The position numbers and the translations under genes were made by a program. From Giardia intestinalis (Eukaryota), in the NCBI GenBank assembly GCA_000002435.2, contig CM018792.1: DNA of 64,000 nucleotides; one strand, given 5' to 3'. Shown here in pieces: positions 38,045 through 61,917 of the stretch. The notes beneath the pieces were generated by a model. The model was not told the origin of the DNA and did not search any database. It saw nothing but the letters and a program-made list of their open reading frames with translations. Numbering within the stretch: position 1 is the first letter of the stretch; every line of letters begins with the position of its first letter.

Positions 38045-38221
38045 GCTCTCTGCGACCCACAAGTAAACTGCCGCTCTCTTAGAGGGGCAAGGCCTGGAGG
38101 AGCAGCGTTGCAGGCTGGTGCCTCGGGTTTCTAGCCTGCGCCCGGCACCATAGAGCAGGTGCTCCGAGCTGCCCGCCCACGGTATTTCTGAGGAGCCGCG
38201 ATCGCAATTGGGAGGCAAAGA

Positions 38222-38974
38222 ATGGCATTTATTGAGGCGGCCAAGGAGAACAGGCTGGACTACGTCAGGGCCCACAAGGCCGCGGACGCAGGCCAGAGGG
38301 ACGCAGACGGGAAGACGGCGCTCATGTGGGCCGCCGAGGCCGGGCACACCGCCGTCGCCCTGGAGCTGGTCGACGCAGAGGCGGGCCTGGTCTCGAACGA
38401 CGGGTCCTTTGCGCTGATTGCGGCGGCAAAGAGGGGGAACCTCGAGCTGATCCAGGCCCTTTTCGAGAAGGAGGGGAGGCTGCGGGACGCCGGCAAGCTC
38501 TCCGCCCTCAACCACGCCTCCAGGGCGAAGCAGTTCGAGGCGGCCAAGGTCCTCCGGCTGAAGACCATCGAGACGATGGACGCGGCGATGCTGGAGCAGC
38601 TCCGGCAGAGGGTCGCGGCCACCTACACCGAGATGGCCAAGAAGTCGCAGCAGGCCGAGGTCAAGAGCCACAACATGGCCATCTTCCGCTCGTTCTTCGA
38701 GGCGTTCTACTCCCTCTCCTGCTCGGGGATCGACCAGGGGGCGGAGATCTCGGAGGAGCAGCTGAACAAGTCCCTCGAGAAGTGCCTGGGCGAGATCCGC
38801 AAGCTCCTCAACTCGAAGAAGTACACGAAGTGCGTGAAGTGCCGCGCCAACGCCCCCAACCTGGTCTGCATGCCGTGCAAGCACTACGTCCTCTGCAAGG
38901 ACTGCGGGAAGGACGTGGCCAGCGAGGTCTGTCCTGGTCTGCGAGAACCCCCTTGGCACACTAGTAGGCACTGA
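38222..38974 (+). CDS. Ankyrin-repeat protein with C-terminal C3HC4 RING-type finger. In the sequence as given, the finger lacks its final Cys pair.
   Basis: N-terminal ankyrin repeats ([37 protein letters not shown]). The C-terminus [47 protein letters not shown] supplies C1-C7 of a zf-C3HC4_3 pattern but not C8. Very GC-rich codon usage. Confidence 0.7.
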
Positions 38975-39050
38975 TAGTACCGCTAAGGCATATGTAGGAG
39001 TATATGGCTGCTCCCGGTGTACAGCACCAACAGCTCTAACAACAGCTGGC

Positions 39051-39341
39051 ATGACTGCTGCTGTGTGTACCTCCTGTGACAGTGGTAAGAAGCCCAACAA
39101 GGATGGCAGTGGGTGTGTAGTATGCTCTGACACCAACTGCAAGAGCTGTGTGGTGGACGGTGTGTGTGGGGAGTGCAACAGTGGCTTCAGTCTAGACAAT
39201 GGCAAGTGTGTGTCTATGAGCACGAACAAGAGCGGGCTCTCCACGGGGGCCATCGCTGGCATCTCCGTCGCGGCGGTTGTCGTCGTGGGGGGCCTCGTGG
39301 GCTTCCTCTGCTGGTGGTTCGTGTGTAGAGGGAAGGCGTAG
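39051..39341 (+). pseudogene. Orphan 3' fragment of a variant-specific surface protein (VSP) gene: CxxC-rich stub, conserved membrane-proximal segment, TM and invariant CRGKA cytoplasmic tail. No signal peptide or N-terminal region.
   Basis: ...[91 protein letters not shown]. Only 96 codons from the ATG, whereas VSPs are typically several hundred aa. Confidence 0.75.
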
Positions 39342-39561
39342 GTACTTAGGTAGCAAACGCTGTGAGTGGTGTAGGGACTTCATAGGGTGCTGGCAGTGGG
39401 ATGCGCACTAGAGTTGAGGGTGGAATCGTGCGAACCAGCTATTTAATCTAGCATCGTTATCACCATTGTTAGAAAACAGGGCACTCGGTGCTATCTTAGA
39501 TAAAAGCCAGACATAGGCAGTTCTAGGGGCGATCGAAGTAGTGAGAGCTTTAAAATTTAAA

Positions 39562-39855
39562 ATGACGAGACCAACTCTGGAATTGCACATTAAGCTCGGT
39601 ATGACCATCTTTGACACCACGTTCAACAGATGTAAAGTGGCCCATGCAAAGGACGTCATAGTGCAAGCCCATTTAGACGATAAAATTAAGACTCTCCGAG
39701 AGCGCGCGCTTTCTAGTCTGTCTGTCTCCGTCACTCACGGTGATCTTCATTTTCAAGGATGTCCCCTTGATCCTCAGCAAACTGTAGCAGAGGCAAGATT
39801 GTCTAACGGGGATAGGCTCTACCTTTTTTACTCGGTTCCACGAGGATTGGAATGA
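39562..39855 (+). CDS. Small ubiquitin-fold (beta-grasp) protein, 97 aa. The C-terminus ...SVPRG-LE is reminiscent of Ufm1 (...RDRVG-SC).
   Basis: ATG at 39562 preceded by taaaatttaaaATG. The ORF-track start at 39541 is GTG. MTRPTLELHIKLGMTIF...LSVSVTHGDLHFQGCPLDPQQTVAEARLSNGDRLYLFYSVPRGLE parallels the Ufm1 C-terminal half [32 protein letters not shown] and ubiquitin ([20 protein letters not shown]). Confidence 0.4.
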   Translation: MTRPTLELHIKLGMTIFDTTFNRCKVAHAKDVIVQAHLDDKIKTLRERALSSLSVSVTHGDLHFQGCPLDPQQTVAEARLSNGDRLYLFYSVPRGLE

Positions 39856-39878
39856 AGTTAATTCTTTGCCACATCTTT

Positions 39879-40361
39879 TCAACGTTGTAGATAGGTTCTC
39901 ATTAGCACAAGGAAGTCATTATTGGTTGATTCCCTTACTAGCCATCTAGTGTTAAATTCAGCAGCAAGAGCGGTCTCCTCCTCGGCCTTCAGGCCCAGGC
40001 GCGCGGCGGCCCGGTTGGCGAAGTAGACGGCGCGCTGGTCTGGGGGCTCGTTGTTCGCGGCCGAGACCTCGATCGCCTGGGTGAAGAGCCGGATCGCCTC
40101 CTGGAAGTCCTCCGCCTTGAAGGCGGCGTTGCCCTGCGCCTTGAGCTCGCTGGAGCTTGTGCTGGAGACCGCCGGCGCCTTCGCCCCGCTCAGGATCTGC
40201 TCCAGGTCGCCGTTGCCGTGCCTGACGTCCTTGAGTCCGAAGCAGTCCCGGAGGCAATCGATGGCGACGTCCAGGTTGTCGGTGTCCTCAACGGCTTGCG
40301 CAGCCCTGAGGTAGAGGAGGTACTCGACGACGAGCCTCTTGGCGGCCAGCCTTGTCGTCAT
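39879..40361 (-). pseudogene. Truncated duplicate of the SGT (small glutamine-rich TPR protein) gene: the first 137 codons are identical to the intact copy at 53757, then 23 unrelated codons and a stop at the repeat boundary
   Basis: MTTRLAAKRLVVEYLLYLRAAQAVEDTDNLDVAIDCLRDCFGL...EETALAA is identical to the right-arm gene. It diverges exactly at the inverted-repeat edge (39961) into EFNTRWLVRESTNNDFLVLMRTYLQR*. Confidence 0.65.
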
Positions 40362-43300
40362 CTATTTTTAAGCAGTCGTTCACTCCCTCTCAAAGTACTC
40401 TCGCTGGTCCATGATCACAGAAACCACCGCGTTCATGTCGCGCCCGAGCCTGACATATGCCTCCCTCACCCGGTTGTAGTTCAGGTCGCCACCACAGATC
40501 CCGATGATCGTGGCGATGTTGTCCTCGTCGTCCGCGGTCAGCGGAGGGGGCTGCTCTGCAGGCTGCGGCGGCGCCCTTTCCCTTGGAATAAGGATCCCTC
40601 TCCCGGCCATCCCTGCCTCGATCATGTTCAGGTAGAGGTGGAGCACCTCAAGGAGCAAGTCGCGATCCTCGTTGAATCTCAGCACCAGATTGGGGCTCCA
40701 GTCGGATATCTGGGTTGTAAACATCTCCAAGAAGTTCGGTGTCTGGAGTATCTGCTCTAGCTCCTCGGTGCTGTACATGTGTGGTCTGTGGCTGTGTCTG
40801 GCCGCGCCCATGTGCCGGAGGGTGTCCTCGAGATCCTCTTCTGTCGGATCTTCGGCGATGATGGCAGCTGCCAGATCCATGTTGTTATTAGCCAGCTCGA
40901 GCGATATCTGCGCCAGCCGTGGCCTACAGGAAAAGGTCTCTACTAGCTGTGCGACGAGGTCCGAGTTGTTGCTAACTGGGTCTAGTTCTAAGGCATCTGA
41001 ATTGGATCCGGACGAGGAGTCTTGCACCTCAGCATGAGGATCTCGCGAAGCAGCCGATTCAATTTGCCGGGCCTGCGCGACCCCTGCGGCAGAACTGCTG
41101 GGAGGCGCTTCAAGGATCCTTCCGCGAGGTTTAGCCTGAGTGAATACTACGGTATCCTGAGTGATATTTGGAACCTTCGACAGTAGAATACCGTCATCAT
41201 TCAAGATAGATGCGTTGAGAATGAGACGGATGGTGGGCGCCTCTGCGGAGATGGCCTCAGCAACCTTCTTCCGCAGATCGCCGACGGTGCTATCTGGAAA
41301 AAACTCGAATGTCCTTGGCTCGAATTCCTTCACTGTGGACCTAACCGCGATCCTGATGCAATCAGACATTTTTTGTTTGCATAGACTAATAATTCACTTT
41401 ATCTCAGAGGGTGCGGTCACGGTTATCTCACCGGAGTAACAATCCGTTGTGCTCTGTGAGTGCCGATTGCTCTGCGGAACCATTTCCAGCGCCCTGACAA
41501 ATGAACGGTTAGAGCGTAGGGCCTTGTTAGCATACTGTGTATCCTCGCCTGCCACAAACTCTAACCCTAAGAAGTCGGCCATTTCGACATTGTTTGCTGA
41601 TGTTTCATGCCTAGACGCGAGGTGCGGCGCCTTCGACTGCGCTCGGCTCTTAGGCTTGAAAGCATTTGCTGCATGTAAATCCCCAAGCTGCCTTTCCTCT
41701 CTTCCGCAGGCGGCAGTGTTTTTCCGAGCAGGTAAAGAAACATCGCCAACTGATTGATGCCTTGCTGACAACTCAAGTTTGTTCTGAGACATATTGCCTT
41801 GAAGCTTACTCCCGTTATTAGGTAGGATGTTTCCCCCTTGAGACCTATTAGAAGTTAGTGAATTCTTGACTGTCGGGACGATTTCTTCTTGAGTTGAGCA
41901 GGAAACTACATCCCTCGCCGAAGCAGAAAGGTGACCTTGCTTGAGTGAGGCACCAAGCTCGCCTGCAATAGAGCTGCCACTCAGACGTGTACACGCAAGA
42001 TTAGCTGAGCTATCGTTTTGACAGATGATGATAGAATGGCTCTCCCCTTCTGTGTGAGGAAACTCAACAATGGTGTCCCGGCCGGAAAAGGAAACCCGGT
42101 CCTTTGTGGAAGTCGCTGGTTGCCCTTTAGCTCGTTTCTCGACCGCTTCAACACCTGCACTGGCCATGTTCTGCTTGCTAGTGTACCTGCTCTCCGAAAA
42201 TAACTCACCAGAGGTAACATTAGCATCATCCTCACTCATCGATGAAGTGGAATGCTGAGTCTCGACCTGCGATAGCCTGACATGTCGGCTTTCAAGGCAG
42301 TCAGCCGTAACAACTGTGTGGCCAAGCTTACTCAGGTGCTTCCCGTCGAAGTCGACGCTTTTGTTTTGCCGTAAGATGGACTGAAAGTTGGAATTGCGTA
42401 GTATGGAAGAGTTAGACAGCGCATGTCGCACACTCTGCTGAGATGAAGGATTGTCCGCGTCACATGTCCTTGGCGTCTTTGCACTAACTCTGAATTCATT
42501 GGTAGTCGTGGCACTATTTTGTGATAGAGATGTTCTGCTCAGCGAGTAGGGATCTTTGCTTTCCTGCCCCAGCGGAAGCGTGACCAGGCTTATGTTGCTA
42601 TCGCTGGAGGGTGTCTGTGGGAGGAGAGGGGCCGGACGCAGACGCTGAAAATCTGTTGAATGAGGTGCTCTGTCGCTATAGACTGGTGGTGAAGCTACTG
42701 AATCCCCTGTCAGAGGGAGAGTTGGCGGTATATAAATGGGGGTTATAGAAGTGTTTTGCCTGTCGTTCCTCATGTTGCTAAGCGGAACGTGCTTCGGTAT
42801 CTGAGTATCCTTGTAAATCGTAGAATCTTCTGTCAGGTGGCTTTCATTCTTTACATCCAAGTCAATCACTGTGGTCGAGGAAGCATGCGCCGAATGGACA
42901 TCGCCGGGGTCTTCCGACGAGGAATCCGAATAGTAATAGTAAGACTCTTCGTCGCTCTCCATTGAGTTGTAGTCCAGTTGACTGTGGTCACTGTCCTTCT
43001 TCTTGCTAACTGGTTCCTGTTTTTGCGCAGCAGGAAGTGTTGCCCTGGACTGAGTAGACGACGTAGTAATGGGCATTATGTCGGGCATTTTTCCGGTGAT
43101 GATAGGGAAAACCCGGGTAGCTTTTGGCCGAGTAGACTCTGACTTGGCAGAGTTTGTTACAGGGAAGGGCAAGCTTGCTATCTGCGTGATTAGGGGGAGC
43201 TGAGTATATGGCACCTTTTTCAACGGCAATGACACTGATGTTGCATTTTGCAGGGTCGTCAGTCGGTTTGGAGACACAATGACGGGCGCGGGCTGTACAT

Positions 43301-44089
43301 CTGGGCATAACGGAATTGATCGTTTTGTCGAGATCGACTCTGATGTATTTAGTGGAAACTTTACAGACTGTTCCTGCAAACAAGAAGGGTCTTGAGCATT
43401 AGTTGTTCGACGCGCAGAGCTCACGTGCATCCTATACCGACGATCCTTACTTGATGTAATTCGGGGCGCCCCCTGTAATTGGTACGGAGGAACAAGTTTT
43501 GGTACGGAAGTTCGGAACGGGATAGCCGAGCTTATCTCACTAGCTTCGTCTTGCTTAGTTCGTCCAAGAGTGAAGCAAATATTCCCAAAGTTTTCCGGAA
43601 ATTTCGTTGAAGGAATGACAATAGAGAGTGGAGGCGGGCGGAAGCTGGAAGAGTCACTAACAGTGCAATCGCTAGTAACCCTACTAAGAGAGAAGTTTGC
43701 TGGGCGAGCCGGCTCATTCGGCATGTGGAGGGATATACTTGAGCCCATAGAGACGCCAGCGGCTTCAGGAATGGGCAAGCCACCAAGCTGATTCTGAGAA
43801 GCACCGAGCCCCACCTCCCTCTCGGATCCGTTAGACTTAGACTGTCTTTCTATTTCCCGAGAAGACTTCTCGTTACACACAGCACTACAGGAGGCTACTT
43901 TTACCTCTGCAAGGTCTGGCCTAAACGAGTCGGCACTTTTCACCTCTTCCACGTTGTTTAGGGCTGTTGCGTGACCTGCGCATGTCTCTTGGCGGCCTTC
44001 AAAGGACGACGTTTTGCTAGTCACCTCCTTACACTCTTCAAGAGACGGCGGCGCGTCCGAGTCCAGCGCGGAAATCTGTCCGCTGCGCC
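39961..44089. repeat. Left arm of a 4129-bp inverted duplication, the reverse complement of 50029-54157. Apparently 100% identical.
   Basis: Every ORF translation in this span, on either strand, recurs identically in mirrored order in the right arm. Direct reverse-complement comparison at both ends and at 41361-41440 versus 52681-52760 shows identity. The boundaries were located by the first mismatches. Confidence 0.9.
40380..41369 (-). CDS. RAD23-like protein (N-terminal ubiquitin-like domain, internal and C-terminal UBA-like domains), copy A
   Basis: The Ubl fold at residues 1-80 is IRIAVRSTVKEFEPRTFEFFPDSTVGDLRKKVAEAI...TVVFTQAKP. The UBA-like segments are RLAQISLELANNNMDLAAAIIAED and NIATIIGICGGDLNYNRVREAYVRLGRDMNAVVSVIMD. 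329 aa. AT-rich initiator. Identical to the copy at 52749. Confidence 0.55.
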   Translation of the reverse strand: MSDCIRIAVRSTVKEFEPRTFEFFPDSTVGDLRKKVAEAISAEAPTIRLILNASILNDDGILLSKVPNITQDTVVFTQAKPRGRILEAPPSSSAAGVAQARQIESAASRDPHAEVQDSSSGSNSDALELDPVSNNSDLVAQLVETFSCRPRLAQISLELANNNMDLAAAIIAEDPTEEDLEDTLRHMGAARHSHRPHMYSTEELEQILQTPNFLEMFTTQISDWSPNLVLRFNEDRDLLLEVLHLYLNMIEAGMAGRGILIPRERAPPQPAEQPPPLTADDEDNIATIIGICGGDLNYNRVREAYVRLGRDMNAVVSVIMDQREYFERE

Positions 44090-47000
44090 TTTCAAATGAG
44101 CTTGTAATCGTCTTCTGCCCCAAAATCCCTATACTCTCTGGGGTTCCTTCTGTTCGAACTTCGGTGTCTATGAAAGCTTGAAGTTCATTGGGAGAACTTG
44201 TTTGCGAGAGAGCATACCCCAGCCCCTTGACAGAGTGATTCTGGTCTTTGGGAAGGTTCTTAACTAGCGTGTCTATACGCAGTTCGATTAGAGAGCCTGT
44301 GTTTTCCCTATAGAACGAGCCCTTTAGGGGCGTGGGAAGTAAAAACGAGGATTCAATAGCAGCTTCATAGAGAGACTTGAGTGATGAGGTGGAGCGTTGG
44401 CTGAGTTCGTTGCAGGTTATATTAGCTCGTTGTTGGCATGCATCGACTGGGGCGCGTGTGCAGTCCACCATCGAGGATTCAGGTACATCATCCAGACCAG
44501 GGATTTCGCAAAGCTGTGACGTGGAGGAAGAAACGGACTCAATCCGCAAAACAAGGGAGGTTAGCGATGGACACGATGAAGCATCACTCAACGCTACCGC
44601 ACCCAGCTCATCGTCATCGTATTGTGGTGAGCAGCTTGGCATCGGAGAAGATAAGATACTTATGGAGGCAGTGCTTATATTCTGGGAGGAGGTGAACACA
44701 GAGTCGCGATCCTTCAAGACTTTCGGACCAAGCTGAGAAAGATGAATGGCCAGAGACGCAGCCGCCCCCAGTGCATAGCCTACTTGCGCCTCTAGTGATA
44801 TGTAGGGGGCATTTGGAATGCAGGTAACGAAGCCTGTGTAATGTCTCCAATCGAAAACTGCGCCAGATCTAGTATTTGTTGCACAAGTACACTTATTGTA
44901 GGGAGTGCACGACGTAGAAGAGACACCGTCTTTGCTGATGGGAGATGCAACCTTCTGGGATTCTAGTGAGGAGGCAAACAAGTTGGGTAAGTACTTGTTA
45001 GAAAGGGTCAGCATCTTTTCCCGAATATGAATAAGCTTAATATCAACACTACGACTCATCACAGAAAGGGGCACGGAGCGGAAACTTTGAACATCAAAAG
45101 AGTCAGAGCAAACCCCCGAAGTTTGCCCCATTGCCTGCGTGCATGGATCGGGCAAAGTAACTGCAGAAGATAGAGGCATATCTGCGGAATTCTGCGGTGC
45201 ATCACCTTCGTTAAAAATATGTCCGGATATGGTCCTAATAGGAGGTTTAGAATCGTAACTAAACACGGAGCCACTGAGGCGGGAAGTTGAATAGATCTGT
45301 CCATGTTTTAAGAGCGAGCTATCCTTGCTCGTAGGAACCCCTGTGACGCCTCTGCCATCTTTCAGACAGGAGGTGGTCTGGAGAGATTGAACTACGGTGT
45401 TAAAAGTACAAGGTGGGATATTATAATGTGCATCTTTAACAATAGTTAAAAGGGCAAACGACTTCAAACCTACCATAGCCTCTTCTGCGGAGCTTTCCAT
45501 GTCTTCAGTATCCAAATCTAGGCCTAATTGCAAAATGATCTCTACAAGAGAGGCAAAAAGGTGCTCGTCATCTGACGCTGGGAGCAAGGTCGTGATGCTA
45601 CTCTTTGACGAAACCCGAGATATGGTTTTGAGGTGGTCCTCCTCGTCTGTTGTAAATGTCCTGTTTTGATCCGAATCGTCCGTTACAATCATGTGTGGCG
45701 CAGCTACGGATCGATTGTATGCCATTTTTACTTTGGAAAGGCTTGATGTTGCTGTCTCCAAAGAATCCAGCCCAATCAACTCAGTCTTGCTGGAGAGGGA
45801 GTAAAGGTCTGTAACGTTTTGACTACGAACCCCCTCGTCTTCTATCAAGCTCTGATTGTCTGAGTCTTCAGAGTTGTATCGAATGTGGTTAGGAAAGTCG
45901 CAAGTCTGGTTAGCCAAAGGGCTGTTAGAAATGTTACAGACCATGTTGTTTAACGATGACCCGACAGTTCTGGTCTTAGTATCGTCTAAGCGACCTGTCC
46001 TTGAAGTAGACGAGAAGGTGTCACGAGAAAGGTCTTTTGTGACGCTAGCCGCGTCGGCTAAATAATCTATAGAAAAGGAAGACACGTTTGAAGGAGCAAG
46101 ACTCTCGTCCAGCCCGCCACCAGCAGTATGACGGTATACAGACGAGTAGGCGCCAGAATCTTCTGCTCGAACGCGGGCCTTCTTATAGGTCTCAACTGGA
46201 ACATGGCGAAGTATTTCACGTAGTTTTTTAGTAGCGTGGACGGATCTGCGTACACTCATACGACTGGAGAGGTTTCCATCACGACTGCGAGGAACCAGCA
46301 GCACCGGGTCAGAAGAGGTTGAGTCGTTTTCTGTGTCTGGCTCGGAAAGTGATTCAGCCTGATACCGACCATTGTTACTGGCAACAATCCCACAAATTTT
46401 TAGTTCGCGCTCATTGAAAAGCTTCAGATCGGCGTCGTTGTTTATGCGAGGTCTCCAGTGGGTGGGAAGCGTATATAGAAACTCTTCGTCGGGATAGACT
46501 GGAAGGCGATCGAGAAGGTCCTCATCGAACTGGAAGGGCTCATTAGTGTGCTCAACTGCTTCTGTTTCTTCGTAACTCTTGTATGCATAAATGAGTTCTT
46601 GGAGCTCGGGCGTTTGATAGTTGAGAATCTGATTTCGCGAGTATCCACGAGTGAAAAAGGGATGATCCATAAGCGAGTGCAAGTGTTCCGAGCATCCGTA
46701 TCGCTTGGTAGGGTGGGCCATGAGGCCGTGGATCAGATCCCAAGCTTCGTCGCTGATGAAGTCAGGCCGAGACACACACTTATCATAGTCCTCTTCTGTC
46801 TTTATAGCAGCCAATCGCTGCACTAGCTCGTCAGGAGTCGATGCAACAAAAGCAACTTCGCCGGTCAGCAGCTCATATAATATGAGCCCGAGGGCCCAGT
46901 AGTCCACCGACCGCCCATAGGCCGGTGCATTGAAGATTTCTGGAGCCATATATTCAACGGTGCCAACTATCTCACGTTCTCCAACCAGTAGGGAGCTTGT

Positions 47001-49406
47001 TTCTCTTGTTGAAGAAATCTTCGTGGTGCTGGTCTGCTTTTCGGATACCTTGACAGCCTCGATAAGAGGAGAAGCACCCTCGTCAACGGATGGAAGCTGC
47101 TCTGCAAGCCCAAAGTCCGCTAAGAGAATATGACCATCATCACGGAAGAGGAAATTAAGCGGCTTGAGATCTCTATGCACAAAGATATCGATGAGTTGCT
47201 TAGACTCGTCACAGGGAAGATTTTGCGGAGGTGCAGGAGGTTTTGGTGGTAAAGCTTGCGAGAGATGAGGATCCACTCTCAGCTGTGACTGCTTAGGAGC
47301 CGCCGACTTGGCTGCAGGTTGCTGGTTCCTGAGAACATTTGTCGTGGAAAGAGACGCGGTATGTCCTGACGATTGCGTACGGGACAGATTCTGCGCAGTA
47401 GTGCCGGACAGGTTGAAACGCTCAGGAGGAAGAGGATGTAACGGAATTCGAGATCCATTTATTACTGGATTAGGCAGATGCTGCATGGTTGTACTATCTA
47501 AAGAAGCAGCCCCAGATTGTTCTGGAGGCAGCGCACTGATCATCATCGGCCGACTAAGAGCAGGGGAGGAAAGCCCGGGGACTAGCAGATTTCTTTGTGA
47601 ACTATTCTCAACGCGAGTCCTAGATGCTAATATGAAGGAGGAGTCGGCATCGCGTCCATCTAAGAAGCTTGCCTCCGTTATCTCTACATTTTCAGCCGGG
47701 GTTGCGACCTCTATACAGTCCTCGGATTCGGGCTGCCAGAAGGAGGCCTGAGTGAGTCCAGACAACGGTCCGCTCAGAGTAGATGTAGCATTTTCTGAAA
47801 TGCTAGCAGAGCCTCGTTGTATAGAACTAGAGGGCGTTTCCGAAGAGGTATGCAAGGGACAACGCTTACTTGACAAAAGATGGCTAGAGTTCTGATTTTG
47901 TTTCGATGAGGAGCTGGAGTCGTCGGGATCGGTGGTGGGAGCAGTTTCCATGCGACTCAGTAACGATCTCTGGACGACAGGCTTTGGACCCTGTTTGGAC
48001 TGTTTGCTGGAAAAGATAAGAGGAACAGGGGGGATGAGATTCGAAATGTCGCTTTTTTCCACAAGGTTCATGGGCGTGACATCGACCACCGGAGGAGGAA
48101 TTGGAGGTATTGCAAATCTGAGAAGCATCTTGTCAAATGATACTTGGTGGAGTGAAGCATTCGGTAGCGGAGCTGATTTGCTTGTGGAAAAGGCTGGGAT
48201 CTTATTTGTATTGGCCCTAGAATTCTTAAGGGCAAGTTTTGCTTTTTGTAGGCTACTTATTGCTGATCGCTGAGATTCTGAAAGAATGGGTGACGACCCC
48301 AAAGGCAAGGAAACCTTAGGTTGCGCACTCTCTGAGCGCACGGAGGCTTTGGCTTGAATCTCAAACAAGATGCTGTCGGTGAAGTGAGACGATACTTCGC
48401 TAGTCTTGGCAGAGGCTACCAAGTCATTGGATTCTGAAGAATTGGAGTCGGAGCTGCTGGAGGAATGGTAGTGACTATTTGCCTCACGCCTGGCCTCATC
48501 TGCCATGATTTCATTCACTACCTCTGCATTAGGCTGGTTCTGGTGCAGATCCAGATGCCTTTCCCCTCGATGTGCGATATGACCGTGTAAAGTTAAAACA
48601 GCGCAAACTATTTCTGCAAACCATCTCCTGGCCCAGCCTTCGCTGACACTCCCGACTATGTCCAGAAGAGATTTCATATCACCTCCAGCAGCATAGTCCA
48701 TAACAAAGTATATGTTTTCATCGTCGTAAAACGCATAGTGGAGGCCGACGATGAAAGACGAGCGAATGCGCATCATTATGCAGCGCTCTATGCGAAGACG
48801 TATTCTGTCTGAAAGATTTTTCATCTTGCTCTTGTTGATTTTCTTGAGGGCGAACAGCTGACCCGAAAACTTGTGCTTCACAAGGTGGACAGACGCATAA
48901 GCGCCAGAGCCAATGTCCTTTAAAAGGTAGAAGTAGTCCATTGAAATACCAGACCGCCGAGAACGCAAAAGAAACGATTCACGTATGTAAATCGTGTTCA
49001 TGAAGTCAGTCAGTGAAATCTGCTGAGTGTCCGACAGTGCCAGAGAATTCATGATAGTTAGATAGCGCTCCTTGTGTACCTGTTCACTATCATCATTTAG
49101 TCTGGGTAGTGCCTCGCCATTTTGAATGGCGTCATTTAGAGATTTAGAAGTATAGGGGTTCAATTCTGAAGAGAGATCATTGAGAAGGGGGCGTTGGCTG
49201 GAGTACTGCTTGCAGCGCTCTGGGCTAAGCAGTTGCTGCGACGCCTCTTCAATGAGATGCTCAAACATTCCTATCTGCGCTTCCTTGAGCCGGTGCTCCC
49301 GGCTCAGCAGATATGCAAACATCTCTTGAATGGAATCCTCCACAAACTTACTGAACATCGATATCCGCCCCTCGGTATCTTTATCCAACTCAAGATCTGA
49401 AGTCAT
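41394..49406 (-). CDS. Giant AGC-family Ser/Thr kinase of MAST/Greatwall (MASTL)-like type (2670 aa). The kinase domain is split by large inserts and is followed by a ~1750-aa S/T/P-rich low-complexity tail.
   Basis: IGSGAYASVHLVKHKFSGQLFALKKINKSKM is the MAST-type SxGAYG loop. YFVMDYAAGGDMKSLLDIVG matches the Greatwall segment [20 protein letters not shown]. A ~450-aa insert precedes FVHRDLKPLNFLF. LADFGLAEQ is followed by a ~45-aa activation-loop insert before GTVEYMAPE. DYWALGLILYELLTG. AGC tail HPFFTRGY. True ATG at 49404-49406. Confidence 0.8.
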   Translation of the reverse strand: MTSDLELDKDTEGRISMFSKFVEDSIQEMFAYLLSREHRLKEAQIGMFEHLIEEASQQLLSPERCKQYSSQRPLLNDLSSELNPYTSKSLNDAIQNGEALPRLNDDSEQVHKERYLTIMNSLALSDTQQISLTDFMNTIYIRESFLLRSRRSGISMDYFYLLKDIGSGAYASVHLVKHKFSGQLFALKKINKSKMKNLSDRIRLRIERCIMMRIRSSFIVGLHYAFYDDENIYFVMDYAAGGDMKSLLDIVGSVSEGWARRWFAEIVCAVLTLHGHIAHRGERHLDLHQNQPNAEVVNEIMADEARREANSHYHSSSSSDSNSSESNDLVASAKTSEVSSHFTDSILFEIQAKASVRSESAQPKVSLPLGSSPILSESQRSAISSLQKAKLALKNSRANTNKIPAFSTSKSAPLPNASLHQVSFDKMLLRFAIPPIPPPVVDVTPMNLVEKSDISNLIPPVPLIFSSKQSKQGPKPVVQRSLLSRMETAPTTDPDDSSSSSKQNQNSSHLLSSKRCPLHTSSETPSSSIQRGSASISENATSTLSGPLSGLTQASFWQPESEDCIEVATPAENVEITEASFLDGRDADSSFILASRTRVENSSQRNLLVPGLSSPALSRPMMISALPPEQSGAASLDSTTMQHLPNPVINGSRIPLHPLPPERFNLSGTTAQNLSRTQSSGHTASLSTTNVLRNQQPAAKSAAPKQSQLRVDPHLSQALPPKPPAPPQNLPCDESKQLIDIFVHRDLKPLNFLFRDDGHILLADFGLAEQLPSVDEGASPLIEAVKVSEKQTSTTKISSTRETSSLLVGEREIVGTVEYMAPEIFNAPAYGRSVDYWALGLILYELLTGEVAFVASTPDELVQRLAAIKTEEDYDKCVSRPDFISDEAWDLIHGLMAHPTKRYGCSEHLHSLMDHPFFTRGYSRNQILNYQTPELQELIYAYKSYEETEAVEHTNEPFQFDEDLLDRLPVYPDEEFLYTLPTHWRPRINNDADLKLFNERELKICGIVASNNGRYQAESLSEPDTENDSTSSDPVLLVPRSRDGNLSSRMSVRRSVHATKKLREILRHVPVETYKKARVRAEDSGAYSSVYRHTAGGGLDESLAPSNVSSFSIDYLADAASVTKDLSRDTFSSTSRTGRLDDTKTRTVGSSLNNMVCNISNSPLANQTCDFPNHIRYNSEDSDNQSLIEDEGVRSQNVTDLYSLSSKTELIGLDSLETATSSLSKVKMAYNRSVAAPHMIVTDDSDQNRTFTTDEEDHLKTISRVSSKSSITTLLPASDDEHLFASLVEIILQLGLDLDTEDMESSAEEAMVGLKSFALLTIVKDAHYNIPPCTFNTVVQSLQTTSCLKDGRGVTGVPTSKDSSLLKHGQIYSTSRLSGSVFSYDSKPPIRTISGHIFNEGDAPQNSADMPLSSAVTLPDPCTQAMGQTSGVCSDSFDVQSFRSVPLSVMSRSVDIKLIHIREKMLTLSNKYLPNLFASSLESQKVASPISKDGVSSTSCTPYNKCTCATNTRSGAVFDWRHYTGFVTCIPNAPYISLEAQVGYALGAAASLAIHLSQLGPKVLKDRDSVFTSSQNISTASISILSSPMPSCSPQYDDDELGAVALSDASSCPSLTSLVLRIESVSSSTSQLCEIPGLDDVPESSMVDCTRAPVDACQQRANITCNELSQRSTSSLKSLYEAAIESSFLLPTPLKGSFYRENTGSLIELRIDTLVKNLPKDQNHSVKGLGYALSQTSSPNELQAFIDTEVRTEGTPESIGILGQKTITSSFERRSGQISALDSDAPPSLEECKEVTSKTSSFEGRQETCAGHATALNNVEEVKSADSFRPDLAEVKVASCSAVCNEKSSREIERQSKSNGSEREVGLGASQNQLGGLPIPEAAGVSMGSSISLHMPNEPARPANFSLSRVTSDCTVSDSSSFRPPPLSIVIPSTKFPENFGNICFTLGRTKQDEASEISSAIPFRTSVPKLVPPYQLQGAPRITSSKDRRYRMHVSSARRTTNAQDPSCLQEQSVKFPLNTSESISTKRSIPLCPDVQPAPVIVSPNRLTTLQNATSVSLPLKKVPYTQLPLITQIASLPFPVTNSAKSESTRPKATRVFPIITGKMPDIMPITTSSTQSRATLPAAQKQEPVSKKKDSDHSQLDYNSMESDEESYYYYSDSSSEDPGDVHSAHASSTTVIDLDVKNESHLTEDSTIYKDTQIPKHVPLSNMRNDRQNTSITPIYIPPTLPLTGDSVASPPVYSDRAPHSTDFQRLRPAPLLPQTPSSDSNISLVTLPLGQESKDPYSLSRTSLSQNSATTTNEFRVSAKTPRTCDADNPSSQQSVRHALSNSSILRNSNFQSILRQNKSVDFDGKHLSKLGHTVVTADCLESRHVRLSQVETQHSTSSMSEDDANVTSGELFSESRYTSKQNMASAGVEAVEKRAKGQPATSTKDRVSFSGRDTIVEFPHTEGESHSIIICQNDSSANLACTRLSGSSIAGELGASLKQGHLSASARDVVSCSTQEEIVPTVKNSLTSNRSQGGNILPNNGSKLQGNMSQNKLELSARHQSVGDVSLPARKNTAACGREERQLGDLHAANAFKPKSRAQSKAPHLASRHETSANNVEMADFLGLEFVAGEDTQYANKALRSNRSFVRALEMVPQSNRHSQSTTDCYSGEITVTAPSEIK

Positions 49407-49436
49407 TAGGGTAACTTTTTTGGTTCAAAACTAAAT

Positions 49437-49994
49437 ATGACTCAGCGCCTCGGAATCGTTGACTTTTCCAATATAGACGTCAAGTCTCCTCAGGAGCTTG
49501 TGGAGGAAGAGTCCAATTGCAAGACTCGCAAGCCGGTTAAGGTCCAGGACGCTAAGAAACCGCGACCTGGGGACCAGGGACTCCGCATTGCAAATTGCGA
49601 GCTCAACACGCTATCTGGGATCACTACCCTTGTCGACGCTGCAATATGGTATCCGGAGCGGCTGTGCATGATGGATCTATCCTGCAATAAAATCACCACC
49701 GTTACTGAATTGGCGAATTTCCCAAACTTACGCATTTTATATCTACAGGGGAATCGTATCCAGGACGTCAGGGATCTAGCTCCCCTGTCGTCACTTTCTC
49801 TCTTAACATCCTTGACAATTCACGGAAATCCACTAGTTGCACAGAAGAACTTTCGACCATGGATCGTCCACAATCTCCCTCAGATCACCAAGCTGGATAA
49901 CATCCCTGTAACTGCTCGTGAGCGGAGAGACGCCGAGCAGCTTGTAAAGCTGGGGGCTGTTAGTTTAGTGCGAGATAACAATCTCAATGTCTAG
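49437..49994 (+). CDS. Small leucine-rich-repeat protein (SDS22 / dynein-LC1-like LRR class)
   Basis: LxxLxLxxNxI repeats: LSGITTLVDAAIWYPERLCMMDLSCNKITTVTELANFPNLRILYLQGNRIQDVRDLAPLSSLSLLTSLTIHGNPL. ATG at 49437, 30 bp from the divergent kinase start. Confidence 0.6.
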   Translation: MTQRLGIVDFSNIDVKSPQELVEEESNCKTRKPVKVQDAKKPRPGDQGLRIANCELNTLSGITTLVDAAIWYPERLCMMDLSCNKITTVTELANFPNLRILYLQGNRIQDVRDLAPLSSLSLLTSLTIHGNPLVAQKNFRPWIVHNLPQITKLDNIPVTARERRDAEQLVKLGAVSLVRDNNLNV

Positions 49995-50028
49995 CTTTGT
50001 AAATACCTTCGAAGTGTCGTTCAGCTGG

Positions 50029-52724
50029 GGCGCAGCGGACAGATTTCCGCGCTGGACTCGGACGCGCCGCCGTCTCTTGAAGAGTGTAAGGAGGTGACTA
50101 GCAAAACGTCGTCCTTTGAAGGCCGCCAAGAGACATGCGCAGGTCACGCAACAGCCCTAAACAACGTGGAAGAGGTGAAAAGTGCCGACTCGTTTAGGCC
50201 AGACCTTGCAGAGGTAAAAGTAGCCTCCTGTAGTGCTGTGTGTAACGAGAAGTCTTCTCGGGAAATAGAAAGACAGTCTAAGTCTAACGGATCCGAGAGG
50301 GAGGTGGGGCTCGGTGCTTCTCAGAATCAGCTTGGTGGCTTGCCCATTCCTGAAGCCGCTGGCGTCTCTATGGGCTCAAGTATATCCCTCCACATGCCGA
50401 ATGAGCCGGCTCGCCCAGCAAACTTCTCTCTTAGTAGGGTTACTAGCGATTGCACTGTTAGTGACTCTTCCAGCTTCCGCCCGCCTCCACTCTCTATTGT
50501 CATTCCTTCAACGAAATTTCCGGAAAACTTTGGGAATATTTGCTTCACTCTTGGACGAACTAAGCAAGACGAAGCTAGTGAGATAAGCTCGGCTATCCCG
50601 TTCCGAACTTCCGTACCAAAACTTGTTCCTCCGTACCAATTACAGGGGGCGCCCCGAATTACATCAAGTAAGGATCGTCGGTATAGGATGCACGTGAGCT
50701 CTGCGCGTCGAACAACTAATGCTCAAGACCCTTCTTGTTTGCAGGAACAGTCTGTAAAGTTTCCACTAAATACATCAGAGTCGATCTCGACAAAACGATC
50801 AATTCCGTTATGCCCAGATGTACAGCCCGCGCCCGTCATTGTGTCTCCAAACCGACTGACGACCCTGCAAAATGCAACATCAGTGTCATTGCCGTTGAAA
50901 AAGGTGCCATATACTCAGCTCCCCCTAATCACGCAGATAGCAAGCTTGCCCTTCCCTGTAACAAACTCTGCCAAGTCAGAGTCTACTCGGCCAAAAGCTA
51001 CCCGGGTTTTCCCTATCATCACCGGAAAAATGCCCGACATAATGCCCATTACTACGTCGTCTACTCAGTCCAGGGCAACACTTCCTGCTGCGCAAAAACA
51101 GGAACCAGTTAGCAAGAAGAAGGACAGTGACCACAGTCAACTGGACTACAACTCAATGGAGAGCGACGAAGAGTCTTACTATTACTATTCGGATTCCTCG
51201 TCGGAAGACCCCGGCGATGTCCATTCGGCGCATGCTTCCTCGACCACAGTGATTGACTTGGATGTAAAGAATGAAAGCCACCTGACAGAAGATTCTACGA
51301 TTTACAAGGATACTCAGATACCGAAGCACGTTCCGCTTAGCAACATGAGGAACGACAGGCAAAACACTTCTATAACCCCCATTTATATACCGCCAACTCT
51401 CCCTCTGACAGGGGATTCAGTAGCTTCACCACCAGTCTATAGCGACAGAGCACCTCATTCAACAGATTTTCAGCGTCTGCGTCCGGCCCCTCTCCTCCCA
51501 CAGACACCCTCCAGCGATAGCAACATAAGCCTGGTCACGCTTCCGCTGGGGCAGGAAAGCAAAGATCCCTACTCGCTGAGCAGAACATCTCTATCACAAA
51601 ATAGTGCCACGACTACCAATGAATTCAGAGTTAGTGCAAAGACGCCAAGGACATGTGACGCGGACAATCCTTCATCTCAGCAGAGTGTGCGACATGCGCT
51701 GTCTAACTCTTCCATACTACGCAATTCCAACTTTCAGTCCATCTTACGGCAAAACAAAAGCGTCGACTTCGACGGGAAGCACCTGAGTAAGCTTGGCCAC
51801 ACAGTTGTTACGGCTGACTGCCTTGAAAGCCGACATGTCAGGCTATCGCAGGTCGAGACTCAGCATTCCACTTCATCGATGAGTGAGGATGATGCTAATG
51901 TTACCTCTGGTGAGTTATTTTCGGAGAGCAGGTACACTAGCAAGCAGAACATGGCCAGTGCAGGTGTTGAAGCGGTCGAGAAACGAGCTAAAGGGCAACC
52001 AGCGACTTCCACAAAGGACCGGGTTTCCTTTTCCGGCCGGGACACCATTGTTGAGTTTCCTCACACAGAAGGGGAGAGCCATTCTATCATCATCTGTCAA
52101 AACGATAGCTCAGCTAATCTTGCGTGTACACGTCTGAGTGGCAGCTCTATTGCAGGCGAGCTTGGTGCCTCACTCAAGCAAGGTCACCTTTCTGCTTCGG
52201 CGAGGGATGTAGTTTCCTGCTCAACTCAAGAAGAAATCGTCCCGACAGTCAAGAATTCACTAACTTCTAATAGGTCTCAAGGGGGAAACATCCTACCTAA
52301 TAACGGGAGTAAGCTTCAAGGCAATATGTCTCAGAACAAACTTGAGTTGTCAGCAAGGCATCAATCAGTTGGCGATGTTTCTTTACCTGCTCGGAAAAAC
52401 ACTGCCGCCTGCGGAAGAGAGGAAAGGCAGCTTGGGGATTTACATGCAGCAAATGCTTTCAAGCCTAAGAGCCGAGCGCAGTCGAAGGCGCCGCACCTCG
52501 CGTCTAGGCATGAAACATCAGCAAACAATGTCGAAATGGCCGACTTCTTAGGGTTAGAGTTTGTGGCAGGCGAGGATACACAGTATGCTAACAAGGCCCT
52601 ACGCTCTAACCGTTCATTTGTCAGGGCGCTGGAAATGGTTCCGCAGAGCAATCGGCACTCACAGAGCACAACGGATTGTTACTCCGGTGAGATAACCGTG
52701 ACCGCACCCTCTGAGATAAAGTGA
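50029..52724 (+). pseudogene. Duplicated 3' fragment (last ~887 codons) of the MAST/Greatwall-like kinase gene without its own ATG. The ORF-track start at 50094 is GTG. It lies in frame with, and 11 codons downstream of, the LRR gene's TAG.
   Basis: The translation is identical to the C-terminal 876 aa of the 2670-aa protein. The upstream in-frame sequence diverges at 50029. The first in-frame ATG is ~95 codons in. No AT-rich initiator. Confidence 0.6.
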
Positions 52725-52748
52725 ATTATTAGTCTATGCAAACAAAAA

Positions 52749-53738
52749 ATGTCTGATTGCATCAGGATCGCGGTTAGGTCCACAGTGAAGGAATTCGAGC
52801 CAAGGACATTCGAGTTTTTTCCAGATAGCACCGTCGGCGATCTGCGGAAGAAGGTTGCTGAGGCCATCTCCGCAGAGGCGCCCACCATCCGTCTCATTCT
52901 CAACGCATCTATCTTGAATGATGACGGTATTCTACTGTCGAAGGTTCCAAATATCACTCAGGATACCGTAGTATTCACTCAGGCTAAACCTCGCGGAAGG
53001 ATCCTTGAAGCGCCTCCCAGCAGTTCTGCCGCAGGGGTCGCGCAGGCCCGGCAAATTGAATCGGCTGCTTCGCGAGATCCTCATGCTGAGGTGCAAGACT
53101 CCTCGTCCGGATCCAATTCAGATGCCTTAGAACTAGACCCAGTTAGCAACAACTCGGACCTCGTCGCACAGCTAGTAGAGACCTTTTCCTGTAGGCCACG
53201 GCTGGCGCAGATATCGCTCGAGCTGGCTAATAACAACATGGATCTGGCAGCTGCCATCATCGCCGAAGATCCGACAGAAGAGGATCTCGAGGACACCCTC
53301 CGGCACATGGGCGCGGCCAGACACAGCCACAGACCACACATGTACAGCACCGAGGAGCTAGAGCAGATACTCCAGACACCGAACTTCTTGGAGATGTTTA
53401 CAACCCAGATATCCGACTGGAGCCCCAATCTGGTGCTGAGATTCAACGAGGATCGCGACTTGCTCCTTGAGGTGCTCCACCTCTACCTGAACATGATCGA
53501 GGCAGGGATGGCCGGGAGAGGGATCCTTATTCCAAGGGAAAGGGCGCCGCCGCAGCCTGCAGAGCAGCCCCCTCCGCTGACCGCGGACGACGAGGACAAC
53601 ATCGCCACGATCATCGGGATCTGTGGTGGCGACCTGAACTACAACCGGGTGAGGGAGGCATATGTCAGGCTCGGGCGCGACATGAACGCGGTGGTTTCTG
53701 TGATCATGGACCAGCGAGAGTACTTTGAGAGGGAGTGA
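52749..53738 (+). CDS. RAD23-like Ubl/UBA protein, copy B (identical to 40380-41369)
   Basis: 329-aa translation identical to copy A. ATG at 52749 preceded by aacaaaaaATG. Confidence 0.55.
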   Translation: MSDCIRIAVRSTVKEFEPRTFEFFPDSTVGDLRKKVAEAISAEAPTIRLILNASILNDDGILLSKVPNITQDTVVFTQAKPRGRILEAPPSSSAAGVAQARQIESAASRDPHAEVQDSSSGSNSDALELDPVSNNSDLVAQLVETFSCRPRLAQISLELANNNMDLAAAIIAEDPTEEDLEDTLRHMGAARHSHRPHMYSTEELEQILQTPNFLEMFTTQISDWSPNLVLRFNEDRDLLLEVLHLYLNMIEAGMAGRGILIPRERAPPQPAEQPPPLTADDEDNIATIIGICGGDLNYNRVREAYVRLGRDMNAVVSVIMDQREYFERE

Positions 53739-53756
53739 ACGACTGCTTAAAAATAG

Positions 53757-54638
53757 ATGACGACAAGGCTGGCCGCCAAGAGGCTCGTCGTCGAGTACCT
53801 CCTCTACCTCAGGGCTGCGCAAGCCGTTGAGGACACCGACAACCTGGACGTCGCCATCGATTGCCTCCGGGACTGCTTCGGACTCAAGGACGTCAGGCAC
53901 GGCAACGGCGACCTGGAGCAGATCCTGAGCGGGGCGAAGGCGCCGGCGGTCTCCAGCACAAGCTCCAGCGAGCTCAAGGCGCAGGGCAACGCCGCCTTCA
54001 AGGCGGAGGACTTCCAGGAGGCGATCCGGCTCTTCACCCAGGCGATCGAGGTCTCGGCCGCGAACAACGAGCCCCCAGACCAGCGCGCCGTCTACTTCGC
54101 CAACCGGGCCGCCGCGCGCCTGGGCCTGAAGGCCGAGGAGGAGACCGCTCTTGCTGCCAAGGACTGCGAGGAGAGTGTGCGCCTTTGTCCAAGCTACCAC
54201 AAGGCGTGGTTCCGCCTCGGGAATATCCGTGAGAGTGCTGGTAATAAGCCTGAGGCGTACAGGGCGTACAGCCAGGCCCTGACGGCAGACCCTAGCAATC
54301 CGAAGTATCGCGAAGCCCGTGATCGTGTCAGCGAGGGCCGTCCTGAACAAGCCACCCCTGACCTCTCAGCACTTGCCAATAACCCTCTCTTTTCGCAGCT
54401 TCGGGATGATCCTGAAATTATCGCCTTGATGCAAAACCCCAAGGTGGCTGACCTTTTATCTAAAGTTAACTCGAATCCAATGGCCATTATGGGCGCCATG
54501 TCAGACCCGGAACTAGCCCCTATTTTCCAGCGCCTCGTCCAAAAGCTTGGGCCACAGCTTTCTAGCATGCTCGGTGGACTTGGTGGACTTTTCGGAGGAG
54601 GCGGAGCGAACTCTCCACCCTCGGGTATGTACTCGTGA
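53757..54638 (+). CDS. SGT: SGT homolog (small glutamine-rich TPR-containing protein; Sgt2/SGTA-like co-chaperone). This is the intact copy.
   Basis: The N-terminal dimerisation motif LDVAIDCLRDCFGL corresponds to SGTA LEVAIQCLETAFGV. Three TPRs follow (AEDFQEAIRLFTQAIE..., AVYFANRAAARLGL..., KAWFRLGNIRESAG...). The C-terminus has Met/Gln-rich STI1-like segments (MQNPKVADLLSKVNSNPMAIMGAMSDPELAPIFQ). aaaaatagATG initiator. Confidence 0.8.
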   Translation: MTTRLAAKRLVVEYLLYLRAAQAVEDTDNLDVAIDCLRDCFGLKDVRHGNGDLEQILSGAKAPAVSSTSSSELKAQGNAAFKAEDFQEAIRLFTQAIEVSAANNEPPDQRAVYFANRAAARLGLKAEEETALAAKDCEESVRLCPSYHKAWFRLGNIRESAGNKPEAYRAYSQALTADPSNPKYREARDRVSEGRPEQATPDLSALANNPLFSQLRDDPEIIALMQNPKVADLLSKVNSNPMAIMGAMSDPELAPIFQRLVQKLGPQLSSMLGGLGGLFGGGGANSPPSGMYS

Positions 54639-54725
54639 CAAGTGAATGTGGTTCACTCCTTGTTTTCTGCCTAAACAATTCGGTACGAGCTGCCTTCAAG
54701 CGGCCGTTTGAGCACATAAAATTGG

Positions 54726-55001
54726 CTATAAAGATTGGTACTCACTATCCTGCAGTAGATTATAAAGCTCTGGGATGCTGACATCCTTACAGCTACGAGA
54801 GGGGTAAACCGGAATTGCCCACGAGCGTGTCACCTCCTGATTTTCAACGGCGCAAGAGTAATCGCTCGGTTTTAGAAAGCGATACACCTGTCCGTTAATA
54901 ACGATGTCGTCATCCCTTGGTGTTCCCCGAATCTGTACCAACATGTCCGGCTTTGGGGCAGAAGCCTCCTTTTTGGTCTGCTGGATAATGAATGGCGGCA
55001 T
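54726..55001 (-). CDS. Small hypothetical protein (91 aa)
   Basis: True ATG with tataaaaacaaATG initiator on the minus strand. No domain recognised. Confidence 0.4.
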   Translation of the reverse strand: MPPFIIQQTKKEASAPKPDMLVQIRGTPRDDDIVINGQVYRFLKPSDYSCAVENQEVTRSWAIPVYPSRSCKDVSIPELYNLLQDSEYQSL

Positions 55002-55042
55002 TTGTTTTTATACATCTTCCATCTCTAATGAAACTCCGCAGT

Positions 55043-55297
55043 TTACTTCTGCTCCGCCGCACGGGCCTGTCTTGCCTTGGGGGTGTAGAGAAGAAGGTCA
55101 TCAATCAGGTCAACATGCGTGAGGAGCATACGCCGACAGCAATAGCGAGTAAGGCCGAGTTCATCCAGCGCCCGCTTAGCAGGAGTCTCTGAGCTTCCAC
55201 TTTCTTCTGCTCCGTATTCTCCTAAAAGCTTAAGGTATTTCTCGTATAGACTTCCAATGACCTTCCCGCAGGTGAAGCACCGAACAGGGATGATCAT
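55043..55297 (-). CDS. RPB10: DNA-directed RNA polymerases I/II/III subunit RPABC5 (RPB10). The start is the internal Met at 55297, not the ORF-track start at 55411.
   Basis: [25 protein letters not shown]...[20 protein letters not shown] matches RPB10 ([18 protein letters not shown]...[20 protein letters not shown]) including the CX2C...CC zinc motif. caccaaaaaataATG initiator. Confidence 0.85.
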
Positions 55298-55316
55298 TAT
55301 TTTTTGGTGCATAGGA

Positions 55317-61831: not shown

Positions 61832-61917
61832 CTTCTAGTTTGGTCGCTGTGCAACGCAATTTAAAAACTGCAATTTATCACTCATTCGATTTATTGGCAG
61901 AGGCTCAAGGCCCGATA

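Follow-up and report, generated by a model that had tools for sequence, protein, structure and literature searches.

A perfect palindrome that cuts a kinase gene and an SGT gene in Giardia intestinalis: an inverted repeat shared by the sampled assemblages, with arms probably homogenised by gene conversion

The window analysed here is a 64-kb stretch that exact protein matches assign to a Giardia intestinalis WB chromosome of 2,761,001 bp (WB C6, assembly GL2.0), and the element in question is a palindrome within it, in which two inverted arms of 4129 bp enclose 5939 bp of unique sequence and cut two genes, one encoding a 2670-aa protein kinase and the other a protein of the SGT family. When the window is compared with itself, arm A is the exact reverse complement of arm B, with 0 mismatches, as a first-pass annotation made from the letters alone had proposed. 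All four ends of the repeat are sharp, since identity stops abruptly and the 60 bases outside each end are unrelated, and the palindrome is the sole direct or inverted repeat of at least 40 bp in the window. A perfect match of 4.1 kb cannot be explained by chance. At none of the four junctions could microhomology or a short inverted repeat be seen. We consider the structure to be an old, homogenised palindrome of the G. duodenalis complex, whose arms are kept identical by arm-to-arm gene conversion, and assign this reading a probability of roughly 85%. The features of the locus and its surroundings are collected in Table 1.

Table 1. Features of the palindrome and its flanks, in window positions (Ub-like, ubiquitin-like; LRR, leucine-rich repeat; VSP, variant-specific surface protein; ORF, open reading frame; GC3, G+C content at third codon positions).
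Feature	Position	Strand	Length	Content or remark
Arm A	39961-44089	contents on -	4129 bp	truncated SGT N-terminus, Ub-like copy A, kinase 3' 2.7 kb
Spacer	44090-50028		5939 bp	unique; kinase 5' 5.3 kb (-) with both kinase-domain halves, LRR gene (+)
Arm B	50029-54157	contents on +	4129 bp	kinase-tail copy, Ub-like copy B, SGT N-terminus continuing into remainder of SGT
Kinase (KAE8303469)	41394-49406	-	2670 aa	intact across arm A and spacer; residues 1773-2670 in arm A
Kinase-tail copy (GL50803_00112962)	50029-52724	+	784 aa	without 5' part
Ub-like copy A (KAE8303468)	40380-41369	-	329 aa	annotated 'Ubiquitin-like protein'
Ub-like copy B (KAE8303472)	52749-53738	+	329 aa	identical to copy A
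SGT, full (KAE8303473)	53757-54638	+	293 aa	first 401 nt (133 codons + 2 nt) inside arm B
Truncated SGT ORF (GL50803_104994)	39879-40361	-	160 aa	spans outer-left junction
LRR gene (KAE8303470)	49437-49994	+	185 aa	in spacer
GC3-rich zone of arm B	53241-54157	+		Ub-like 3' half and SGT N-terminus
Mirror zone of arm A	39961-40877			
VSP C-terminal remnant	39003-39341	+		620 bp from arm A, pointing toward it
ORF between VSP remnant and arm A	39541-39855	+	104 aa	weak ubiquitin fold
Antisense ORF	53358-54350	-	330 aa	overlaps GC3-rich coding sequence
Antisense ORF	40218-40760	+	180 aa	overlaps GC3-rich coding sequence
Antisense ORF	37907-39262	-	451 aa	overlaps GC3-rich coding sequence
RPB10 ORF	55043-55411	-	122 aa	current annotation 84 aa
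Gene 103365 ORF	55257-61448	+	2063 aa	current annotation 2043 aa

Each arm carries the 3' end of the kinase gene, the complete gene for a 329-aa protein and the start of SGT, which is the content given by the first-pass annotation, except that its figure of 411 bp for the SGT portion was too long. The by-products that it listed, namely a truncated SGT ORF, a detached kinase tail and two identical Ub-like genes, are borne out by the ORF map. The kinase matches the Pfam Pkinase model in two stretches, an N-lobe at about residues 161-250 and a C-lobe at about residues 742-917, with an insert of about 490 aa, and both halves of the catalytic domain are encoded wholly in the spacer. Judged from its sequence it is an AGC-type kinase with a split catalytic domain; this much of the label 'MAST/Greatwall-like' stands, but in a search of solved structures (PDB) Greatwall scored no better than Cbk1/NDR or PKA, the three best matches having similar scores. 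The kinase tail borne by the arm shows coding constraint, third-position changes being about 2.5 times as frequent as those at the first and second positions, and no recognised domain was found in it by Pfam and PDB searches. Its copy in arm B is a by-product held identical by conversion and not an independent gene.

The 329-aa protein had been labelled RAD23-like, for which support is wanting: the Pfam ubiquitin match is below threshold (E=0.0017, residues 20-75), RAD23 is matched in the PDB in its ubiquitin-like (UBL) domain only (E=0.0035), and the Pfam and PDB searches gave no UBA and no XPC-binding match. Outside Giardia, SGT/Sgt2 binds the UBL domain of Get5/UBL4A, and the 329-aa protein could be a partner of SGT of the Get5/UBL4A type, and not RAD23. 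The 293-aa gene is assigned by its Pfam profile to the SGT/SGTA family, with matches in the dimerisation, TPR and STI1/DP regions; TPR_1, TPR_2 (E of 1e-13) and STI1-HOP_DP (E=1.4e-10) lie above their cut-offs and SGTA_dimer (E=2e-4) lies below its own. The truncated ORF GL50803_104994 consists of 134 residues common to SGT and 26 from the left flank. It was already in the 2007 annotation (XP_001707226) and is present in DH (ESU36823), and since its assemblage B counterpart has only 59 aa, we regard it as a by-product and not as a conserved protein.

Our comparison covers the genomes of WB (assemblage A1), DH (A2), P15 (assemblage E) and GS and GS_B (assemblage B, the same isolate), as well as metagenome and short-read data, and the palindrome junctions are present in at least eight independent assemblies or read sets. 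GL50803_104994 and both Ub-like copies carry 2007-era accessions. In nanopore hybrid assemblies (supplements of PMC7048089), the distance from 104994 to gene 103365 is 14,884 bp in WB and 14,886 bp in the isolate Beaver, as against 14,895 bp here, and this reproduced 14.9-kb spacing means that two further long-read assemblies hold the two arms and the spacer. DH contig AHGT01000038 crosses the outer-left junction at the same base as WB, and DH contig AHGT01000108 is colinear with window positions 43581-62724. The junction between left flank and arm is found again in P15 contig ACVC01000124 and in metagenome scaffold ERZ28584860, which comprises exactly one arm and 332 bp of left flank. The structural-variant table of Pollo et al. 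contains no match for the gene numbers of the locus. A false duplication is excluded.

The same arrangement extends beyond the A1 lineage, to Giardia lineages as far apart as distinct species. P15 contig 124 (ACVC01000124) reads through 251 bp of one arm, the spacer and the entire other arm into the left flank, and P15 contig 732 begins 478 bp inside an arm and runs into the right flank. A DH contig reads 509 bp into a second, inverted copy of the arm, and the GS and GS_B contigs read 225 and 438 bp, respectively, into the second arm around the spacer; the other arm end is joined to VSP genes in GS_B contig 297. In short-read graphs of assemblage B, a 3907-bp arm unitig found in at least 18 samples shares 30 bp with either end of the spacer unitig (5996 bp), which itself starts and ends with reverse-complementary 30-mers (terminal inverted repeats). 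Overlap at both ends together with such terminal repeats is the graph signature of an inverted repeat. Run SRR17450158 yields the same graph pattern, with a 4143-bp arm unitig and a 6032-bp spacer unitig, and run ERR3333378 yields an arm-length unitig of 4152 bp only. The lineages in these two runs are 70-72% identical to WB and 80% identical to each other, and probably represent assemblages D (SRR17450158) and C (ERR3333378), an unverified assignment made from accession ranges and project dates. Spacer length is conserved, at 5939 bp in DH, 5950 bp in P15, 5936 bp in B and 5972 bp in SRR17450158. An assemblage B short-read contig from SRR3177952 (L016, 9768 bp) runs unbranched from the spacer across the inner junction into the arm and stops short of the 3' end of the LRR gene; the branch was probably lost because the other junction was thinly covered, and the unbroken course is no argument against the repeat.

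The boundaries are homologous as well. The inner boundaries lie at +10, +11, +4, 0 and -8 bp, all within 19 bp across lineages, and the inner-right junction, which is 35 bp past the LRR stop codon in WB, falls on the corresponding point, or very close to it, in DH, P15 and GS_B. The outer boundaries (0, -2, -12 and -15 bp) agree within 15 bp, save in assemblage B, where the arm is 226 bp shorter. The sequence of the outer-left junction is common to A1, A2 and E to the base. When the left flank of B (L026, 380-745) was aligned with that of WB (39342-39960), nothing aligned but the VSP tail. The palindrome is thus older than the splits among the G. duodenalis assemblages sampled, those of A, B and E and, at the least, of a fourth lineage that is probably D. 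This disposes of the 'very recent event' offered by the first-pass annotation as one explanation of the zero divergence, and the comparison with syntenic loci of other isolates that it had proposed finds the same palindrome, its boundaries homologous, in A2, E, B and SRR17450158, and a weaker trace of it in ERR3333378. G. muris retains the Ub-like gene followed directly by SGT (L012, 8135-10909) among other neighbours, without a repeat within 21 kb. Of the ancestral order kinase-RAD23-SGT that had been envisaged, the part in which the Ub-like gene precedes SGT fits this arrangement. The palindrome possibly arose after the split from G. muris; among the lineages examined, none was found in the pre-duplication state.

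Although the arms differ considerably between genomes, with 86.8% identity between A and E, 72% between A and B and 70-72% between A and the two further lineages, they scarcely differ within a genome. Where each copy can be anchored to its own flank, the inner and outer arm ends are identical over 509 of 509 and 492 of 493 bases (one indel) in DH, 251 of 251 and 476 of 478 in P15, and 438 of 438 and 379 of 379 in GS_B, and the inner end over 225 of 225 in GS. Substitutions relative to WB that are common to both copies number 70 in P15, 197 in GS_B and 3 in DH, and only two sites carry a substitution that distinguishes the copies. Both are in P15, 3 and 19 bp from the outer edge of the arm, where conversion should be least efficient. 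Arms diverging independently since before the split of A and B would differ from each other by at least 28%; homogenisation must therefore have been continuous and much faster than mutation. Purifying selection was considered as the cause of arm identity and rejected, because synonymous sites, non-coding sites and sites in the non-functional fragments are identical too. The 'ongoing gene conversion' that the first-pass annotation had named among its possibilities is therefore supported, both by the lineage substitutions shared between copies against two copy differences and by the GC3 boundary pattern described below.

The history of the locus is best pictured as follows. An inverted copy of a segment containing the kinase 3' end, the Ub-like gene and the first third of SGT would have been placed 35 bp beyond the LRR gene before assemblages A, B and E, and one or more others (probably D), separated. 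From then on, both arms have evolved as one sequence, any new change in one arm being either erased or copied into the other whenever recombinational repair used the other arm as a template. The process would be non-allelic, intrachromosomal gene conversion acting much faster than new mutations arise; the 0 differences over 4129 bp in WB would then be found because conversion outpaces mutation. Wherever the process ended in a crossover, the spacer would be inverted. Conversion appears to be GC-biased over the outer 1-1.2 kb of each arm, where synonymous sites would have been pushed to about 95% G/C. Of all this, the data show the structure, its occurrence in several lineages, the joint variation of the arms and the agreement of GC3 with each lineage's boundary; the molecular pathway, a GC bias of conversion as the cause, the flipping of the spacer and an origin by template switching are inferred.

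Other origins have to be weighed against this one. An assembler may duplicate or mis-join a single arm, or present a heterozygous inversion without duplication as a repeat, and the perfect identity of the arms in a polyploid genome, together with the disagreement of short-read assemblies of one isolate on the orientation of the spacer, might suggest as much; the 'collapsed/chimeric assembly' of the first-pass annotation was a suspicion of this kind. Such an artefact is scarcely credible, however, as the left junction occurs in the Sanger-era annotation, DH, P15, GS_B, the metagenome scaffold and two nanopore hybrid assemblies. Moreover, both ends of the spacer continue into one and the same arm sequence for exactly k-1 = 30 bp, which by de Bruijn-graph reasoning indicates a true inverted repeat and would not be produced by a single-copy inversion polymorphism. 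A recent duplicative inversion in the WB lineage, with arms identical merely for want of time, would account for the absence of differences in WB, would agree with the very low overall heterozygosity reported for WB in the literature, and is how Adam et al. (2010) explained identical inverted VSP pairs. Against it, the same junctions exist in A2, E, B and at least one more lineage with arms 0.5-30% from those of WB, both arms carry the substitutions by which the lineages differ, and the 13-30% divergence of the other contigs excludes contamination by WB; we accordingly give a recent origin next to no weight. Recurrent recent duplications at a fragile site, arising independently lineage by lineage, would accommodate boundaries that are not base-identical, with an inner spread of up to 19 bp, as well as the displaced outer boundary (-226 bp) and unalignable left flank of B. 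Yet at least four events would be needed, each recent enough to leave no divergence and each placing one particular 4-kb segment, inverted every time, at one particular point about 35 bp past the LRR stop codon; A1, A2 and E share the outer-left junction to the base, and the 3' end of a VSP gene in the left flank points at the arm in both A and B. Recurrence of this sort is very improbable.

An old palindrome homogenised by conversion has its own weak points. The absence of the repeat from G. muris was observed at a single 21-kb locus whose neighbours differ, so that the time of origin is only loosely bounded, and polishing with multi-mapped reads could make the zero divergence in WB look slightly better than it is. 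Outside WB, the copy-by-copy identity was measured over the arm ends only (225-509 bp each), and full-length arm identity in B, E, C and D is deduced from collapse and from unbranched contigs in 454 and short-read data.

A further footprint is seen in base composition. Toward the outer end of arm B, GC3 rises from about 0.6 to 0.97 in a zone that ends at the arm boundary and has its mirror image in arm A, and the SGT N-terminal portion has the highest GC3 among genes called in the window (mean 0.54, 95th percentile 0.71). The arm ends in SGT codon 58 in assemblage B and in codon 134 in the other lineages, and GC3 follows the boundary of each lineage. Codons 59-133 have a GC3 of 0.93 in WB, 0.87 in P15 and 0.90 in ERR3333378, where they lie inside the arm, as against 0.49-0.55 in B, where they lie outside it. 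Codons 1-57, inside the arm in all lineages, have a GC3 of about 0.9 in A, E, B and ERR3333378, and codons 135-293, outside it in all, have one of about 0.55. In GS the value falls from 0.97 to 0.52 between the 29-codon windows flanking codon 58. At third positions of codons 59-133, sites with G/C in WB and A/T in GS outnumber the reverse by 30:1. The corresponding ratio is 40:39 for the remainder of SGT (Fisher p=1.5e-6) and 471:297 for the part of the kinase present as a single copy (p=1.2e-5); for P15 versus GS it is 26:2 in codons 59-133. In codons 1-57 (53757-53927), only 8 of 57 third positions differ between WB and GS in G/C-versus-A/T class, whereas about half do elsewhere in SGT, and nucleotide identity is 89%, compared with about 72% for the whole arm. 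These codons look far more conserved than their neighbours because of parallel fixation of G/C.

The pattern suggests GC-biased arm-to-arm conversion as the best available cause of the high GC3 in the outer arm. The GC3 peak could instead be an older local feature, due to an allelic recombination hotspot or to codon selection at the 5' end of SGT, that has been partly lost in B. G. muris, which lacks the repeat, has a weaker peak at the same place (0.83/0.76), and part of the peak must thus predate the palindrome or not depend on it; in addition, WB windows just past the boundary still reach 0.76. Enrichment is lacking over the inner 2.7 kb of the arm, the kinase tail having a GC3 of 0.50 against 0.48 in the single-copy part, which uniformly GC-biased conversion would not predict, and the SGT N-terminal portion of SRR17450158 has a GC3 of only 0.65, over a baseline of 0.33. 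An initiation hotspot near the Ub-like/SGT promoter, producing a conversion gradient, is one possibility to reconcile these values with GC-biased conversion. On the other hand, GC3 in B drops from 0.97 to 0.52 at its own arm end and remains high up to theirs in four other lineages, and the 30:1 bias is far from both local baselines. Codon selection is no explanation, since the functional SGT of B tolerates a GC3 of about 0.5 in codons 59-133. We therefore hold an older local feature to be unlikely as the whole cause, though it deserves serious consideration, and prefer GC-biased conversion between the arms.

The orientation of the spacer relative to the flanks varies among assemblies, WB, DH and GS_B having it one way and P15, GS and BAH15c1 the other. 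GS_B contig 16 and GS contig 2231 are 100% identical over arm and spacer, yet are joined oppositely relative to the right flank, which reflects either an arbitrary resolution of the repeat or the presence of both isomers in culture. Without long reads, an assembly should have no means of ordering an exact 4-kb repeat, so that such contigs show only that both walks fit the graph and do not prove that both isomers exist. Flipping of the spacer by recombination is plausible, and would cost nothing, since one intact kinase gene and one intact SGT remain whichever way the spacer lies. The earlier statement that the kinase is intact only on the left and SGT only on the right is thus true of the WB isomer and not of the locus.

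Several observations concern the sequences adjoining the arms. The VSP remnant beside arm A has CXXC cysteine-rich motifs, a transmembrane stretch and the canonical tail (17 residues), and at the equivalent place in assemblage B there is an intact VSP, 366 bp from the arm (L026, 746-2011). With a VSP next to the arm in both A and B, the palindrome abuts a break in synteny associated with VSP genes. Between the remnant and arm A lies the 104-aa ORF, with weak Pfam matches to ubiquitin (E=6e-4) and Rad60-SLD (E=4e-3); the DH annotation lists it as a gene and P15 conserves it, but it was not found beside the arm in assemblage B. The three long antisense ORFs of Table 1 look like shadow ORFs generated by skewed codon composition, and not like genes. 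Beyond arm B, the ORFs of RPB10 and gene 103365 overlap by 155 bp, an overlap that the shorter starts of the current annotation would remove.

Comparable palindromes are known from mammalian sex chromosomes, where arms more than 99.9% identical are maintained by intrachromosomal conversion that is GC-biased, with occasional inversion of the spacer (PMC3723533, PMC8327919, PMC8981503). Like palindromes P1-P8 of the human Y and those of the X, the Giardia locus has inverted arms around a unique spacer and has orthologues in lineages whose arms have diverged. It differs in that its arms measure 4 kb and not tens of kb to Mb, in that it contains housekeeping genes and two gene fragments instead of amplified testis gene families, in that its apparent GC bias is confined to one arm end, and in its setting, a binucleate, tetraploid, putatively asexual protist instead of a non-recombining sex chromosome. 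The inverted repeats of plastids (IRa and IRb) also have copy-corrected, identical arms, both orientations of the single-copy region coexist, and small boundary shifts cut the genes at the edges. Plastids, however, are organelles present in many copies per cell, with arms of 10-30 kb that carry rRNA genes, and the Giardia locus is nuclear. As to origin, inverted duplication by template switching or fold-back repair (PMC10622511), in which unique sequence comes to separate a nearby segment from its inverted copy, is a possible source, although neither microhomology nor a short inverted repeat was seen at the junctions here.

Within Giardia itself, 14-19 identical inverted VSP pairs are known (Adam et al. 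2010, PMC2996952; Xu et al. 2020, PMC7000408); Adam et al. called them 'cryptic' and attributed them to recent duplication. These pairs resemble the palindrome in being identical head-to-head or tail-to-tail copies in the same genome, with abrupt ends of identity, and they are known to end contigs prematurely. Their spacers are 2.2-3.8 kb long, as against 5.9 kb here. VSP pairs consist of surface-antigen genes; the palindrome, by contrast, contains no VSP in its arms, although a VSP remnant does adjoin arm A. It interrupts two housekeeping genes, and several assemblages have it in common, with its arms homogenised. Our literature searches found no relevant paper for genes 104994 and 112962, and no description of this non-VSP palindrome, of its conservation across assemblages or of GC-biased conversion acting on protein-coding genes of Giardia. 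Phenomena of this kind are known; the present one is unexpected in Giardia, well supported, and offers a tractable handle on recombination.

For users of the annotation, both Ub-like genes, GL50803_104994 and GL50803_00112962 are products of the palindrome, the latter two being by-products, and short-read assemblies will break or be mis-oriented at this locus. Whether Giardia more generally keeps kb-scale inverted repeats as long-lived palindromes, through frequent and locally GC-biased intrachromosomal conversion, is a tentative proposition to which we give slightly less than even odds. If it is true, the locus would provide the first direct footprint found of GC-biased conversion in a diplomonad, and the 14-19 'cryptic' inverted VSP pairs would be old homogenised structures and not recent duplicates. 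The puzzle that identical VSP genes were found only as inverted pairs may likewise have an answer, in that direct repeats may be deleted and inverted ones homogenised, undergoing nothing more than flipping. The polarity of the GC bias, limited to the outer 1.2 kb with a peak at the Ub-like/SGT promoter, would mark a recombination-initiation hotspot open to experiment, and with two arms and a boundary that differs between lineages, the locus is a natural reporter. Giardia is binucleate and tetraploid, and to our knowledge no meiosis has been observed in it. How the copies of its genome stay alike, and whether Giardia recombines at all, are long-running questions, to which this locus contributes sequence-level evidence of recombinational copy-correction across the species complex.

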